From IMG/VR virus record IMGVR_UViG_3300033145_002495, positions 1 to 40,778 of that record: a stretch of 40,778 bases of DNA; one strand, given 5' to 3'. Every line of letters starts with the position of its first letter. Within the stretch, counting starts at the first letter, position 1. Made by a program: the position numbers and the translations under genes. Under the pieces are notes generated by a model. The model worked only from the letters and a program-made list of their open reading frames with translations, was not told where the DNA came from and did not search any database. Source of the DNA: a virus (taxonomy: Duplodnaviria; Caudoviricetes). Below are positions 877 through 40,665 of this stretch, piece by piece.

Positions 877-1299
877 TTACTCTTTTTCTATTTCTTCTAA
901 TTTGGGACCGACCTTTTTTTCAATATCTTTAATAACTTTCTCTGGAATCATTTCAGTTGGTTTAACAAAACCTTTTTGAGGAATTCCACTAACTGGCACC
1001 ATTTTATTTTTTCCCATTTCAGCATCAATTTGTTTTTGTTTAGCCGCCATTTCCAAAGCCATTTTAGATGCTTCTATATTCATTTTAGCTTGAGCTTCCA
1101 TAGAAGGTTTAGCTCCAGAAGGAAACATTATTGTATCCCATTGAACTGGACTATTACATTCCATACAACGCATTTTAGTAATATCTATTTTATTCATATC
1201 AGGAAATGGTCTCTCAATAGAAAATTTAAAAGCACATTTAGAACAACGGAGATGGAAAGTATAAGATTTTACTTCTTCCTTTTCTTTATTTTTTGCCAT
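877..1299 (-). CDS. Zinc-ribbon hypothetical protein
   Basis: CSKC...CMEC pairs; tightly packed in the operon. Confidence 0.7.
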   Translation of the reverse strand: MAKNKEKEEVKSYTFHLRCSKCAFKFSIERPFPDMNKIDITKMRCMECNSPVQWDTIMFPSGAKPSMEAQAKMNIEASKMALEMAAKQKQIDAEMGKNKMVPVSGIPQKGFVKPTEMIPEKVIKDIEKKVGPKLEEIEKE

Positions 1300-1681
1300 A
1301 TTTTTCTTTGTGTAAATCTACAAGTAAAAATGCTATATCGCTTGCTGTCTTTTCAGTAAAATCGTGGCTATACTCTCTCTTTACCATATTTGCTAATTCC
1401 CAAATAAAGAGATGACCAATTTCGTGAGCAATAGTATATTTTAACCAGAGAATTTGTCTTTCATTTAAACTGGGGATTTCTTCAAAAAGCGATTGATAAA
1501 TATAGAAGTCAATTTTTCTTGTAGTGGGTTCAAAAAAAATACTAAAATGACCCCCTGCTTCATTTTCTTTTTCTTTCATTATATGGAAACTATAAACTAC
1601 ATCGTGAGGAAAAAAGGTTGTCAGCTCTACAAATAATTGTTTAGTTTTAGCCAATATCTTTTCTTTTTTTGTTTTTTTCAT
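1286..1681 (-). CDS. HExxH zinc metallopeptidase-like protein
   Basis: TIAHEIGH motif followed by a downstream E (TEKTAS), as in ImmA/IrrE-like zincins. Confidence 0.65.
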   Translation of the reverse strand: MKKTKKEKILAKTKQLFVELTTFFPHDVVYSFHIMKEKENEAGGHFSIFFEPTTRKIDFYIYQSLFEEIPSLNERQILWLKYTIAHEIGHLFIWELANMVKREYSHDFTEKTASDIAFLLVDLHKEKYGKK

Positions 1682-1941
1682 AGTAATCTTCTTTGTTGTT
1701 TCTTGGGATTCCAGTTAAAATAAATAAGATAATGATATTCCGGGGGGTCAGAAAATTTATCAAGCACTGGTTTTTCTGACCTTGCGATAACTCTATCTGT
1801 TAATTCTTCATAGGGAATTTCCATTATATCGTGTTCCACTCGGATTAAAATTCCTTCTTTTTTTGTTTTTGCTAACCAGTAATATTTATCACGGATTCCT
1901 ACTTGTCCGTGCCAAATTGACTTGACATTTACTTCAATCAT
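1678..1941 (-). CDS. Hypothetical protein
   Basis: ATGA overlaps with both neighbours. Confidence 0.7.
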   Translation of the reverse strand: MIEVNVKSIWHGQVGIRDKYYWLAKTKKEGILIRVEHDIMEIPYEELTDRVIARSEKPVLDKFSDPPEYHYLIYFNWNPKKQQRRLL

Positions 1942-2174
1942 AATTTCAGTATTTTTTCAATTTCCGCTTTATCCATTTTTTTATTGAGTTTAGCATTGAT
2001 AGTCTGATAAATTCTTGGCATTTCTTCAATAATAACATTTTCTTTCTTAAGAATTTCTATAATCTGGTCAGCAATTTTTTCAAATCTTTTTTGTTCTTCT
2101 TCGGCAATTTGTTTAGCCCGAATTTGAGCAGGGTCTATAATACCAGCGAAGGGTTTTTTAAATGGTTTTTCCAT
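1938..2174 (-). CDS. Hypothetical helical protein
   Basis: Operon packing, ATGA overlap. Confidence 0.65.
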   Translation of the reverse strand: MEKPFKKPFAGIIDPAQIRAKQIAEEEQKRFEKIADQIIEILKKENVIIEEMPRIYQTINAKLNKKMDKAEIEKILKL

Positions 2175-2460
2175 AAATTGAAATTATTTTAAAATTTTTA
2201 TTTACTTTATCATAACCCCAAATTTCAGAATAAACAGGAAGAGCTTTCCTTCTTACTTTCTTTTCTCTTGTTCTTATGTTAGAAAGAGTGGTTAATTGAA
2301 TAAAAAGGATGTTTCCGTTTGTTTTATTTACTGCCAAAATATCATAACATCCAAAAATATCACTCTCTTTTGCCCAGCGGGATTTTTGAGGATACCAGCA
2401 CAAAAAATCTTCTTTGTTTAATATCTCTATTGCTTTTTTTCTGATTAAAGCTTCTTTCAT
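2158..2460 (-). CDS. PD-(D/E)XK nuclease, Holliday-junction resolvase-like
   Basis: E..I...A...L, DIFGCYDILAV, ILFIQLTT pattern of small Hjc/VRR-NUC-like nucleases. Confidence 0.6.
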   Translation of the reverse strand: MKEALIRKKAIEILNKEDFLCWYPQKSRWAKESDIFGCYDILAVNKTNGNILFIQLTTLSNIRTREKKVRRKALPVYSEIWGYDKVNKNFKIISIYGKTI

Positions 2461-2462
2461 TT

Positions 2463-2642
2463 TTATAATTTAGCTTTTAAACAATATCCGCAGTTGTGGC
2501 AATAATAACCAATAATCCTTTCAGAGTAAGGTTGCTCTTTTCTGGTATGGGTCATAATACCTTTTACTACCACTTCCCAAGTAAGCCGACCTTTACATTG
2601 GGGACAATTAAACCACTTAACTTTTAGGTAATTTTTGTTCAT
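2463..2642 (-). CDS. Zinc-ribbon hypothetical protein
   Basis: CPQC...CHNC; ATG at 2642 preferred over TTG at 2657. Confidence 0.6.
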   Translation of the reverse strand: MNKNYLKVKWFNCPQCKGRLTWEVVVKGIMTHTRKEQPYSERIIGYYCHNCGYCLKAKL

Positions 2643-2675
2643 ATAATAACTTGACAAATTTCTTAATTGGTGTTA

Positions 2676-2900
2676 TCATAAATCTTCGTCTTCTTGCCCT
2701 ATAATTTCCGCTTCGCCTAATTCTAAATAAAGATAGGGGAAAGGACTTTTAAATGGGATTGGGGTGACTCCTGCTATCTTTTTACATTTTCTTTGTTTTG
2801 TTTTTGCTAATCCTCTCTTTTCTACATCTAATCGTTCCTTCTGAATTTCTAAATATAATTTATCTAAAATTCTATGTAATTCTTTTGGTGCTTTTTTCAT
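2676..2900 (-). CDS. Hypothetical protein
   Basis: Starts 2 nt after the upstream stop. Confidence 0.6.
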   Translation of the reverse strand: MKKAPKELHRILDKLYLEIQKERLDVEKRGLAKTKQRKCKKIAGVTPIPFKSPFPYLYLELGEAEIIGQEDEDL

Positions 2901-13987: not shown

Positions 13988-14024
13988 ACCAAAAGCCGGC
14001 AATTAAAAGCCGGTTTTTGGGTTT
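13988..14024 (+). terminator. Intrinsic terminator closing a roughly 115-nt transcript
   Basis: AAAAGCCGGC / GCCGGTTTTT followed by a T-rich tract. Confidence 0.65.
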
Positions 14025-14114
14025 TGACAACTCTCAATTCTAAAAACTATTTGGTATTTCAGATTCTCAATCCAGTAATAATTTTCAAAATTGAGAGTTG
14101 TCATAGTTTTGAAG

Positions 14115-28674: not shown

Positions 28675-28953
28675 ATGAATGTAAAAAAGGTTACAGCTTC
28701 ATCAAACGGAGTTTTATCAGGCATATACAAGATTGTAGGAGTAAGATTGGTTGCTGGTAGCGATGCCGCAACTGCTATTTTATACGATAATGCTTCTGCC
28801 CAATCTGGTGATGAAGTAATTAAGTTATCAGTTGCTTCGGCAAATGGAACAGATAAAGATAATTGGCAAGAAAGAGTAGCTCCCCAAACAACTAATGGGA
28901 TTTCAGTCACTCTTACTGGAACAAGCTCGGTATTGTATATTTATTATATTTAG
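28675..28953 (+). CDS. Small beta-rich structural protein
   Basis: ILYDNASA...NGISVTLTG pattern. Confidence 0.65.
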   Translation: MNVKKVTASSNGVLSGIYKIVGVRLVAGSDAATAILYDNASAQSGDEVIKLSVASANGTDKDNWQERVAPQTTNGISVTLTGTSSVLYIYYI

Positions 28954-28954
28954 A

Positions 28955-30604
28955 ATGTTAAAGATTTTATGGAGTAGTGTTACTCCGACTATTGAAAGCG
29001 GATACGGCAGAGTTTCCAGAGAAGTGGTTTCACGATTAGTTAAACACGGTTTTGATATTATCTATCACGGCTATCAGTCGTCAGGCAAACTTCATTTAGT
29101 AGATGGCACTTTCAAAATGTTAGATGCTGGCGGGGCTGAATATGGAATGAATGTTCTTTCAAAATACTTTAAAAAATATAACAGAGATGTGTTGATAACG
29201 CTATTTGATATTTGGGCATTTTTCGGAAAGATAGAATCTCTTTGCCTTCCCTGGATAGCTTATTTCCCGATTGACGCTGAACCAGTTAGTGTTCCTTTAT
29301 CAGAACCCTTAAAGCACGCTTTCAAAAGAGTATGCTTTTCAGAGTTTGCCGAGAGAGAATTAAAAAAAGTAGGATTAGATTCCACTATTATTTATCACGG
29401 AGTAGATACCAAGATTTACAAACCGCTTTCAGAAAACAAGAAAAAGGAGTTAAGAAAAAAAGCAGGAATACCTGAAAATGCGTTTTTGGTGGGGACAAAC
29501 GGAGTTAATAGATTTGAGAGGAAAGATTTTCCGAGAATGATAAGGATATTCGCCGAGTTTGTAAAAAAGAATAAAGCAAAAGACGCAATTCTGTATATTC
29601 ACGCCAGTCCTCACGGCAAAGAAGGAACATCCTATTCTTTAATAGAATTGGGAAGATTGTATGGGATAGAAAAACAATTAAAATTTCCACCCCATCTGCC
29701 TTTTGAAGATTCGGGATTGGTAAAAATGTATAACACTCTTGATGTTTATTTCTCCACTTCAAGAGCAGAAGGTTGCGGACTGCCGATTTTAGAAGCTCAA
29801 GCGTGCGGAGTGCCGGCAATAGTTCCTGACAATTCTGCCCAGCCAGAATGGGTAAGGGGACACGGTTGGATAATGAAATGCTCTGACCATATTGTTTCTC
29901 TGACTACCCCTTTACACAATAAATGGTATTTAACCGACATAGAAAGTGCGGTTGAGTGCCTGACAGAAGCATATCAGAACAAAGAACTCCGAGAGAAATA
30001 CGGGAAAATGGCTCAAAAAGCAATGCTGAAATATGACTGGGATAAAATTGTAGAAGAACAATGGATACCTTTTTTGAATAAAGCGGAAGAAGAATTGAAA
30101 AATCCATTTGATAAAAAATACTTTGACATTAGAGAAAAGACCGATAAATCGTTAAACTTTCAACAGATTGGAGAGGAAATAAGAGGAAAATCAGTTTTGG
30201 AAATAGGGTGTGGAGACGGTGAATTCTTAAAGATATTACAAGATAAAGGTTACAAAGTTAAGGGATTTGATATTTCAGAGGAGGCAATAAAGAGAGCAAA
30301 GGAAAAAGGAATAAAATGCTTTCAGGACGATGCTTTAAAGGGTTTATTGAAATATGAAGATAATTCGTTTGATACCGTATTTTCAATGCACCTTTTAGAG
30401 CATTGCGAGGATGATATGGCGGTAATTAGAGAAAGTATTAAGAAAGCAAGAAAAGTGGCTTTACATCTTATCCCGTTAGGAGTTAGAGCTGACTGGACAC
30501 ACAAAAGGGTTTATACCTTTGGGCAGGTAATGAGCAAATTAAAGCCAACAAAAATGCTTACCTATCCGAATGGAGACGCACTTTTGGTCTATATTAAAAT
30601 TTGA
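28955..30604 (+). CDS. GT-B (GT4-like) glycosyltransferase fused to a class I SAM-dependent methyltransferase
   Basis: SGYG, IYHGVD, RKDFP and EGCGLPILEAQACGVP; then VLEIGCGDG, GFDISEEAI and FDTVFSMHLLEH; ATG 28955 follows the upstream stop. Confidence 0.9.
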   Translation: MLKILWSSVTPTIESGYGRVSREVVSRLVKHGFDIIYHGYQSSGKLHLVDGTFKMLDAGGAEYGMNVLSKYFKKYNRDVLITLFDIWAFFGKIESLCLPWIAYFPIDAEPVSVPLSEPLKHAFKRVCFSEFAERELKKVGLDSTIIYHGVDTKIYKPLSENKKKELRKKAGIPENAFLVGTNGVNRFERKDFPRMIRIFAEFVKKNKAKDAILYIHASPHGKEGTSYSLIELGRLYGIEKQLKFPPHLPFEDSGLVKMYNTLDVYFSTSRAEGCGLPILEAQACGVPAIVPDNSAQPEWVRGHGWIMKCSDHIVSLTTPLHNKWYLTDIESAVECLTEAYQNKELREKYGKMAQKAMLKYDWDKIVEEQWIPFLNKAEEELKNPFDKKYFDIREKTDKSLNFQQIGEEIRGKSVLEIGCGDGEFLKILQDKGYKVKGFDISEEAIKRAKEKGIKCFQDDALKGLLKYEDNSFDTVFSMHLLEHCEDDMAVIRESIKKARKVALHLIPLGVRADWTHKRVYTFGQVMSKLKPTKMLTYPNGDALLVYIKI

Positions 30605-30653: not shown

Positions 30654-30738
30654 ATGGCTGCTGATTTCAATTGGTATCAATACAACGGAGCAAGCACTGC
30701 TGAAACCAGTTTAGGAACTGGTGGGAATCTGTTTAACT
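30654..30738 (+). CDS. Exon 1 of an intron-split structural protein (MAADFNWYQYNGASTAETSLGTGGNLFN)
   Basis: ATG after an A-rich leader; frame hits TGA just inside the intron. Confidence 0.85.
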
Positions 30739-31006
30739 TCAAATGAGGTTCTTTAGAGAGTAATCTCTATTGCTTATCTGGCTATTTGCTGGAAACTCTT
30801 GTTAGGTTCTGGATACAAAACAGTAATCCGAAGGGATAAGCTGAAAGTAAAAATTCCAGAAATAGAGACAACCAGCAGGGAAGATTCCTTCAACGGAAAA
30901 CCCTCAGAGACTATACGCCAGACTCCTCTTTATGAGGATGAAGATATAGTCCGAACCGTATAGAAATATACGGAGTTAAGCAGAAATGACTTAACCATTT
31001 AGGATA

Positions 31007-31043: not shown

Positions 31044-31658
31044 ATGAAGCAGGAACAACAAGGCAATAGAACAATCAGGAAAAGATATATTCCTTGGAAT
31101 AAGGGTAAGAAGTGTAATTATCTTTTAGGAAATCAATTCGCTAAAGGGAATAAACCTAATAAAACTTCTTTTAAGAAAGGACACATACCTTGGAATAAAG
31201 GTAGAAAAAGACAACAGGTTGCTTGGAATAAGGGACTAAATAAAGAAAATAGTGAAGGAGTAAAGAGAGCATCTGAAAAGAGAAAAAAAAGAATTATTAT
31301 TAAATGTGGTTATTGTGGAAGAAAGATAGAAAAAACTATAAGAGAGTTTAAGAGACACTTATATCATTTTTGTGATAATAGTTGTAAGGCTAAGTTTAGA
31401 AAGGGAAAACTGGCTGCTAATTGGCAGGGTGGAATTACTCCCTTACAAACAAAAATTAGAAATTCAAAGGAATATGAAATTTGGAGAAAAGCAGTATTTG
31501 AGAGAGATAATTATACTTGTCAGGATTGTGGTCAGAAGGGAGGGAAATTAGAGGCACACCATATTAAATCTTTTTCTAAATATCCCGAACTAAGATTGGC
31601 AATAGATAACGGAAAAACGCTTTGTGAAAATTGTCACAAAAAATATCCTAAAGAGTAA
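31044..31658 (+). CDS. Intron-encoded HNH homing endonuclease
   Basis: WNKG repeats (NUMOD-like), CGYC...FCDNSC finger, RDNYTCQDC...LEAHHI...[10 protein letters not shown]. Confidence 0.92.
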
Positions 31659-38701: not shown

Positions 38702-38920
38702 ATGGAACAAAACACTAATTACAAAAACCAAGAACAAGACCGCAGAATTGAAGTTTTAGAAAAACACATTGCCACTATTAACGACGAATTAAATTCAGTT
38801 AAGATTGATATGGCTGAGATTAGAGCCAATGTCTGTTGGTTGAGAAAAAGCTATTGGATAATAATTACAGCTTCCTTGGGTGGATTAGCCACCGCTTTGA
38901 TTAATCTTTTGTCCAAATAA
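38702..38920 (+). CDS. XhlA/hemolysin-like lysis membrane protein
   Basis: Coiled coil then W...WIIITASLGGLATAL transmembrane segment. Confidence 0.6.
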   Translation: MEQNTNYKNQEQDRRIEVLEKHIATINDELNSVKIDMAEIRANVCWLRKSYWIIITASLGGLATALINLLSK

Positions 38921-38936
38921 AATGTTAGAAGACCCA

Positions 38937-39256
38937 TCGGATAATTTATGTTTCAAAAAATTGGAAAGAAATCTGTCCGAAATAGAGAACCTCCTGATAA
39001 AAGTGGCGGGGAGGGAATATCCAATTATTGAGAGACAGGTCAAAGTTTTTGGCACTATTCTCTCCCCGCAATGTTATATGATTCTTGAATTCTGGGCGAG
39101 TATGGGCTGAATGCCCGCAAAAATGTGGCTTGGGGTATAAGGTCGGCTCTTATACCCGACAAAATGTTCAGCGGTTGAAAGTCCGCAAGGCTCTGCGTAA
39201 AAATAGGAGTTAGCCGCCCGCAATCCTTAAAAACGCCCCGCCCAGAATTGAGAAAT
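38937..39256 (+). ncRNA. Candidate multi-domain structured RNA
   Basis: Three consecutive GC-rich stem domains (see findings). Confidence 0.55.
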
Positions 39257-39340
39257 TATGAAAAAGGTTATTCAAAAACTTAAAAAATTAAAAAAGGTCA
39301 AATTTTTAAGATTTAAACCACGAGGCAAAAAGAATAACAT

Positions 39341-39883
39341 ATGGAAGAAGATAAAAGAAAACAGCTAAATCTTTATAAGAACTTAGGAGCAATTTTGATT
39401 TCAAAGGGAGAGTGGTTTTTGGCTAAAGCCCATAATGTGAAATATACTCAAACTATCAGTAGTGCCACTTTAAAGAATTTCCTTGTTGGTTTGGGACTTA
39501 CAAACATTTATACAGCGGATAACAAATATCGTCTGGCAGATTGGAAGGTTTGGCAAAGTATTATAAAATATGATTGGACAGATAAAAGGAAATATCTTTC
39601 GGACTTCTTTGATTGCGACGATTATGCCAACGCTTTTAAATCAAGAATGTCAGAAATCTATAAATTGAACTCGGTGGCTTTGGCAAGAAGCACTATTTTA
39701 TATGACAGAAATACAAAGAAAAAGGTTGGTGTTCATCGCCACAATATCATAGTTGCCACTTCCAACGGCATTCTTCAAGCGTATGCTTTTGAGGCTCAAA
39801 CGGACGAGTGGCAACTAATTCAAAAAGGTCGTCCCATTGAAATGGGAAATTGGCAATATCAAATTAAATACTTAGATTTTTAA
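39341..39883 (+). CDS. Papain/transglutaminase-like cysteine peptidase
   Basis: FDCDDYA, H..NII and FEAQTD pattern consistent with a Cys-His-acid triad. Confidence 0.65.
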   Translation: MEEDKRKQLNLYKNLGAILISKGEWFLAKAHNVKYTQTISSATLKNFLVGLGLTNIYTADNKYRLADWKVWQSIIKYDWTDKRKYLSDFFDCDDYANAFKSRMSEIYKLNSVALARSTILYDRNTKKKVGVHRHNIIVATSNGILQAYAFEAQTDEWQLIQKGRPIEMGNWQYQIKYLDF

Positions 39884-40570: not shown

Positions 40571-40612
40571 ATGGGAAAAAAGAAAAAAGGAAAAAAGAAG
40601 AAAAAGAAATAA
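40571..40612 (+). CDS. 13-aa poly-lysine micro-ORF MGKKKKGKKKKKK
   Basis: ATG 1 nt after the SLT stop. Confidence 0.35.
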   Translation: MGKKKKGKKKKKK

Positions 40613-40665
40613 TTTTCAAAGGTCGTTTTTTTCTTTAGTAATTACGATTATCAAAATTATTAACT

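Follow-up and report, generated by a model that had tools for sequence, protein, structure and literature searches.

The lysis region of IMGVR_UViG_3300033145_002495, a complete virus record with direct terminal repeats whose 40,778 bases are the window analyzed here, contains a GC-rich stretch in which a preliminary description saw a three-domain RNA with tRNA-like parts. Is this a real RNA, how much of it is conserved, and what might it do? The window encodes terminase, portal, SU10 capsid, SU10 adaptor, LysM, and SLT proteins (Pfam). The SLT and LysM genes point to a bacterial host with peptidoglycan, which might, as a guess, belong to the Patescibacteria.

The stretch is bordered by a holin-like gene and a gene with a DCDD motif (Table 1). 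Residues D91, C92, D93, and H132 of the DCDD protein are invariant in all five sequences compared, and the gene likely encodes a papain-like peptidase; a 51-aa hydrophobic ORF and then the SLT gene follow on its 3′ side. The 62-aa ORF of this region is likely spurious. Its best tblastn match across 245 loci has an E value of 0.49, and two of three homologous RNA elements, described below, contain several stops in each forward frame. Two lysine-rich mini-ORFs also occur in the window, and similar basic mini-ORFs are present at the end of contig L104 and in L047.

Table 1. Positions of the RNA element, its parts, and other features in the window
Feature	Position	Strand	Remarks
72-aa holin-like gene	38702..38920	+	Pfam XhlA, E 8e-5, sub-threshold; upstream of element
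62-aa ORF	38922..39110	+	no Pfam or PHROG match; likely spurious
Weak hairpin (domain 1)	38937..38980	+	folding z -3.2 on +, -0.8 on -
14-bp hairpin (domain 2)	39006..39069	+	folding z -5.7; locally real
Conserved structured RNA element, 162 nt (domain 3)	39088..39249	+	model match and covariation
P1a, 5′ strand	39088..39098	+	partner 39239-39249; closing-stem sequences differ in L104, L150, and L167
P1b, 5′ strand GGGC	39104..39107	+	partner 39235-39238 (GCCC), not 39113-39116
Junction word UGAAU after P1b	39108..39112	+	identical in 4/4
P2 hairpin GCC/GGC	39113..39129	+	invariant loop word GCAAAAAU
P3 helix GGGTATAAG/CTTATACCC	39133..39157	+	7-nt loop; between invariant UUG and GAC
Hairpin with invariant 12-mer GGUUGAAAGUCC	39171..39186	+	probably T-loop-like or GAAA-tetraloop-like
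Candidate 3′ pseudoknot	39189..39227	+	hairpin 39205-39211 / 39222-39227; drawn by eye
AAAAC strand before P1b 3′ strand	39230..39234	+	invariant, 4/4
36-aa lysine-rich ORF	39258-39368		tiny; next gene after element
180-aa DCDD-motif gene	39341..39883	+	Pfam Lectin_C_term, E 0.0012, sub-threshold; downstream of element
13-aa lysine-rich ORF	40572-40613		tiny
Group I intron core	30729-30973		91.5 bits (Rfam)
AAAGGTCG sites	916, 2594, 6957, 7845, 8241	-
AAAGGTCG sites	26991, 32129, 39824, 40470, 40618	+

All of the stem words quoted in the preliminary description are present at the positions it gave. Three segments, picked beforehand for their stems, were compared on the plus strand with dinucleotide shuffles, giving folding z values of -3.2 for 38937-38982 (2 of 200 shuffles as good), -5.7 for 39003-39072 (0 of 200), and -3.1 for 39085-39252 (0 of 200). 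The whole genome has 11 comparable long helices, two of them inside 38937-39256. The third domain has a GC content of 51% vs 35% for the genome, a value unequalled by any 170-nt segment of the genome sampled at 10-nt steps. Conservation is shown only for this third domain. Domains 1 and 2 have no homologue among the 245 loci, and neither of them lies 5′ of the L104 or L167 element. The claim of a novel non-coding RNA is accordingly supported for domain 3, whose stems covary and whose overlapping 62-aa ORF is unconserved, but not for the other two.

Three homologues of domain 3 were found, namely L104, a metagenome contig, and L150 and L167, both from IMG/VR. A covariance model that had only L104 and L167 as input, the window and L150 being left out, matches the window at 39089-39255 (62.1 bits, E 1.8e-15) and L150 (42.5 bits, E 7.8e-10), and its next-best match in 208 sources scores 20 bits with P1b broken. 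In all four loci the element is intergenic, lies on the sense strand, and forms part of a lysis module; it is single copy in the window genome and ranges from 162 to 243 nt in length. L181 (20 bits, E 0.0023) was rejected as a homologue because its P1b is unpaired.

The family is sparsely distributed across the collections searched. The DNA pattern GACAA..GGTTGAAAGTCC..GG recovered L150 as one of 20 matches, and two of the eight matches to a P2 pattern were homologous, L167 and L168, the latter being the same contig as L150. No homologue was present among the 15 loci from an exact 16-mer scan of viral contigs, the 11 matches to a pattern containing AGTATGG, or the 33 matches of a pattern scan of genome contigs, while a last viral pattern scan returned two homologues already in the set and none among its other 23 matches. 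Model R1 had no match in those searched of 101 genomes from the phylum of G010, and blastn against phage and plasmid collections gave nothing or short chance matches. Relatives of the DCDD gene were collected at 82 loci (33 of 64 parts of the metagenome scan, 80 of 216 confirmed loci kept, many contigs short), one of which, L104, carries the RNA. Inspection by eye of 20 upstream regions of these relatives revealed no such RNA; in about a dozen of them the holin-like gene directly adjoins the peptidase gene.

The neighborhoods of the four copies differ. L104 carries domain 3 only, 12 nt 3′ of the peptidase stop codon and upstream of a holin-like gene. In L150 the element, which has lost its 5′ end to the end of the contig, stands immediately 5′ of an M23 peptidase gene. 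L167 has the order XhlA-like gene, metallophosphoesterase, RNA, small HNH, DCDD peptidase, and NUMOD3-HNH, and its element starts 0 nt after a stop codon. In the window the next gene is the 36-aa ORF, followed by the peptidase. The distance from the element to the next start codon is 8-73 nt over the four loci, and the peptidase gene follows the RNA in the window and in L167 and precedes it in L104. The L150 and L167 records are 78% and 34% complete, respectively, and the content that they have in common with the window is limited to HNH, one small ORF, or the peptidase. G002, the closest capsid relative, has terminase, portal, and tail genes in common with the window, and both the RNA and the peptidase are missing from its entire record (41 kb, 84% complete). 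Because G002 is without it and the records are otherwise dissimilar, we regard the RNA as a rare accessory of lysis modules. As a separate observation, the M23 peptidase gene just downstream of the L150 element (1183-2892, minus strand) is split by a LAGLIDADG-bearing insert, likely an intein.

The conserved element consists, in order, of P1a, a bulge, P1b, UGAAU, the P2 hairpin with its GCAAAAAU loop, UUG, the P3 domain, GAC, and a linker, followed by the hairpin GG-UUGAAAGU-CC, a 3′ domain, AAAAC, and the 3′ strands of P1b and P1a. The closing stem seen in the preliminary description is borne out by the homologues, being at least 11 bp long in the three complete copies and 25 bp long in L167, with a P1 bulge that is AGUAU, A, or absent among the variants. 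In the window an imperfect extension of P1 (39078-39087 / 39250-39259) lies over the ATG of the 36-aa ORF (39258). P1b is paired in 16/16 cells, and both sides have changed in three of its four pairs. The preliminary description had instead folded GGGC-TGAAT-GCCC as a hairpin; this is refuted, as 62.5% of its cells are paired, no pair has changed on both sides, and GGGC pairs with the 3′ end. P2 is paired in 12/12 cells with one C-G to U-A change. The P3 domain, 25 nt in the window and 45-81 nt in the homologues, contains the best-supported helix, with 28/28 cells paired and all seven counted pairs changed on both sides. The T-loop-like hairpin, also written GG-TTGAAAGT-CC, is likewise upheld by the homologues; its loop is UUGAAAGU in all four and the outer pair of the GGUUGAAAGUCC hairpin is C-G, A-U, G-C, and A-U over the four sequences.

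Covariation was thus found in four helices across the window and the three homologues. Together, P1b, P2, P3, and the GGUUGAAAGUCC hairpin are paired in 68/68 cells and changed on both sides in 12 of 17 pairs, P1a being outside the counted alignment, in a comparison of four sequences from which the structure was itself derived, with the alignment fitted to the model. None of 500 shuffles reaches this score, and slid controls pair in 33-53% of cells. The 3′ halves of L104 and L167 resemble each other. The outcome in which a conserved ORF would have accompanied stems that do not covary is the reverse of what we see, and the element is almost certainly a selected RNA structure. G-U pairs in P1b and the sense orientation of all four copies favor the plus strand. 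No Rfam family matches the element in the window or the homologues, and the freely accessible literature that we searched holds no description of the motif, and the invariant 12-mer GGUUGAAAGUCC brings up only unrelated papers.

Further pairings can be drawn in the P3 and 3′ regions. The bistable segment of the preliminary description survives in one of its two states, as the helix GGGTATAAG/CTTATACCC covaries and the GTCGG/CCGAC alternative has no compensatory change. The latter pairing can form in the two short variants (the window and L150), though not at that place in L104 or L167, and it competes with P3. A better candidate for a two-state segment is 39212-39216, because both pairings drawn for it in the window use these nucleotides; they are complementary to 39189-39192 and, alternatively, to the P3 loop at 39144-39148 (candidate pairings, by eye). 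A local H-type pairing in the 3′ region can be drawn by eye in all four sequences, with 15/16 cells paired and one double change. All four sequences also have a 5-bp complement that could join the P3 domain to the 3′ region, with a different sequence in three lineages and a chance of 0.12-0.30 per sequence.

What, then, might such an RNA do? Tentatively, and with confidence somewhat short of even, we read the element as a stable, compact, late non-coding RNA with a trans-acting role, comparable to raiA, ROOL, and GOLLD. Domain 3 would be transcribed together with the late lysis genes and cut free at the long stem that closes it, presumably through RNase III-type cleavage of P1 or of the flanking hairpins. 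The released RNA would then adopt a compact core, probably with a pseudoknot, and late in infection bind a protein or complex of the host. Variable peripheral arms stand beside invariant unpaired words; because these words do not change even as the P3 domain ranges in length from 25 to 81 nt, we envisage a tertiary core with optional arms, which would imply a tertiary fold that binds or catalyzes something. The long P1, the lack of a terminator or common expression platform, the changing next gene, and element starts 0-12 nt from a preceding stop codon point to co-transcription and release in trans, and the starts of the L104 and L167 elements in particular fit co-transcription. Among the copies there is no alternative partner strand common to the closing stems. 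Against this reading, no partner protein is common to all four loci, all four elements lie 5′ of a lysis-region gene at the short distances given above, so that a cis role also fits, and the RNA is an accessory, missing from G002. An unrelated long hairpin lies immediately 3′ of the L167 element, and on this basis flanking hairpins may serve as processing signals.

The preliminary description proposed a switch for the peptidase and holin genes, and a riboswitch-like element sensing a host metabolite or protein and timing lysis-gene expression would suit the sense orientation and the position ahead of a lysis-region gene that every copy has, the P1 extension that overlies the ATG at 39258 in the window, and the two candidate partners of 39212-39216. 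UGAAU junctions and T-loop-like hairpins also recall the c-di-AMP and FMN aptamers; in the c-di-AMP (ydaO) riboswitch RF00379, too, a short stem comes after a UGAAU junction, and genes for cell-wall hydrolases are neighbors. However, the RF00379 model has no match to the element at E<=10 (2 of 14 controls above cut-off), and the element has neither the two-fold junction repeat nor an expression platform. No terminator-like site is present from the element to the peptidase gene, the long P1 has no common anti-P1 strand, and the downstream genes are unrelated, differing in all four loci, with the peptidase upstream in L104. We therefore consider the switch a weak proposal and quite improbable. 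An undescribed class of ribozyme, self-cleaving or processing the late lysis transcript, is a little easier to accept but still unlikely. A multi-way junction with a T-loop-like hairpin is reminiscent of twister-sister, and the element is intergenic, as small self-cleaving ribozymes are, with neighbors that change. The unpaired words that never vary, the multi-way junction, and the candidate pseudoknots are among the marks of "biochemically sophisticated" RNAs, as set out in PMC5737381. The window also carries a group I intron, and the L167 element has HNH genes in its vicinity. Yet no Rfam ribozyme, twister-sister included, matches at E<=10, and the sequence offers no nameable cleavage site or cleavage-site motif. 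Taking catalysis and ligand sensing together, we give a limited though appreciable chance to the reading that the element founds a class of RNA, either catalytic or ligand-sensing, that cuts or gates the lysis transcript and so sets lysis timing by RNA alone; its carriers would be phages that infect uncultured bacteria (possibly Patescibacteria) and have it in their lysis modules.

The remaining readings have still less in their favor. Pairing of the P3-domain loop with the 3′ loop of another molecule could build dimers or cages like those of ROOL, GOLLD, and manA; the 5-bp complement that recurs in every copy with lineage-specific sequence would suit this, as would loops rich in A, and cages are possible for RNAs <200 nt (bioRxiv 10.64898/2026.07.01.735769). 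The complement is, however, frequent enough by chance, and may equally pair within one molecule, that we hold self-assembly to be improbable. A tRNA mimic or decoy for anticodon nucleases, as first proposed, would draw on the conserved T-loop-like hairpin and on a GTCGG/CCGAC helix that L150 can form too, but the loop called anticodon-like has 9 nt in the window, not 7, is absent in L104 and L167, and competes with P3. ARAGORN finds no tRNA gene in the window or the homologue loci, Rfam tRNA, tmRNA, and Y RNA models do not match, the 3′ ends are without CCA, and UUGAAAGU is without the UUC of tRNA T-loops. The element is not tRNA-like, and mimicry or decoy activity is very hard to credit. Least probable of all is a circularly permuted, shortened RNase P-like RNA. 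The element shares GAAAGTCC with all three RNase P RNAs compared, and its UGAAU, GCAAAA, and GGCUU occur in the order of an RNase P 3′ end, with a long helix coming next; but the P4-like helix that is complete in the window (8/8) has 6, 5, and 6 of 8 in the homologues, a core-adjacent pair is broken in L150, competing local hairpins covary, and doubled targets give no profile match. Resemblance to domain V of a group II intron was also considered and rejected, the AGC triad being missing 5′ of the hairpin (by eye).

Within the preferred reading of a stable RNA acting in trans, the nearest known RNA in size and layout is the raiA motif (RF03072), an RNA of about 200 nt with a closing P1 and two pseudoknots that works in trans (PMC12968392). 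Both have a long closing P1, variable arms, and a pseudoknotted core, the last only a candidate in our element. A UGAA word comes straight after P1, as in raiA, but position 5 of the UGAAU after P1b is U in all four copies vs the A of the raiA U19-A23 pair. The 8-mer GGTTGAAA occurs in three of six raiA sequences compared and the 11-mer GGTTGAAAGTC in two of the six. In raiA, however, the common word joins P1c to P3a, whereas in the element it forms a hairpin of its own whose outer pair covaries. The GU and GGU bulges of raiA P1, the PK1 words, and the PK1/PK2 core order are not seen. The raiA covariance model has no match to the element at E<=10; as a control, it matches in 6 of 61 genomes from the class of G010. 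raiA is chromosomal in Bacillota and Actinomycetota, while the element was found in phage-type contigs only. In this respect it resembles GOLLD and ROOL, structured RNAs of unknown function that are phage-borne and feature kissing loops and A-minor contacts, with GOLLD rising at lysis (PMC12286853). GOLLD is often >800 nt, and GOLLD and ROOL often lie near tRNA genes; the element is far shorter, ARAGORN finds no tRNA in the window, and the GOLLD and ROOL models give no Rfam match. Objects of the same kind from the same IMG/VR source were collected as viral candidate structured RNAs by Fremin, Bhatt, and Kyrpides (2023; PMC10690425); the invariant words and two sample numbers do not occur in seven of its supplementary files, and two very large further files may hold the motif.

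In sum, domain 3 represents a genuine phage RNA family, small and uncatalogued, that belongs with the orphan structured RNAs and has one conserved domain rather than three. The family is compact and has no entry in Rfam 15; its covariation is clean, its core is invariant, and its four natural variants are synthesis-ready, which makes cleavage, ligand, and cryo-EM tests cheap. The element resembles raiA in one word and in layout and resembles GOLLD and ROOL in setting, RNAs of unsettled function, and a 162-nt minimal form in the lysis modules of otherwise dissimilar phages could reveal the role of such RNAs. Should it prove to be a new ribozyme or a lysis-controlling phage riboswitch, that would be a notable find.

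Several other features of the window and related contigs were observed. HNH ORFs at 31044 and 32160 come after the group I intron, and a fused glycosyltransferase and SAM methyltransferase gene (28895-30604) lies amid virion genes. A second structured element at 88-225 on the plus strand has a 16-bp closing stem and a folding z of -7.9 (0 of 200 shuffles as good). It lies ∼1.6 kb downstream of domain 3 on the circular map and on the same strand, has no Rfam match, and is not matched by model R1 on the plus strand; the genome's only other copy of TTGAAAGTC falls just after its closing stem. Two strong tandem hairpins of 12 and 15 bp (13989-14103, plus strand, z -4.6) mark the switch from the early minus-strand to the late plus-strand gene blocks. 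The motif AAAGGTCG occurs 10 times in the window vs 0.6 expected, always on the local coding strand and often near gene ends. It is found 11 times in G015, 6 in G017, 2 in L104, 1 in G016, and 0 in G002, shows no enrichment in five unrelated genomes, and is possibly a host-linked signal. Lastly, at about 2330-2590 of L238, a tRNA-like 5′ arm and a T-arm with a CCA end (by eye) surround an insert of ∼180 nt that contains GGGTTGAAAGTCCC, an element different from domain 3.
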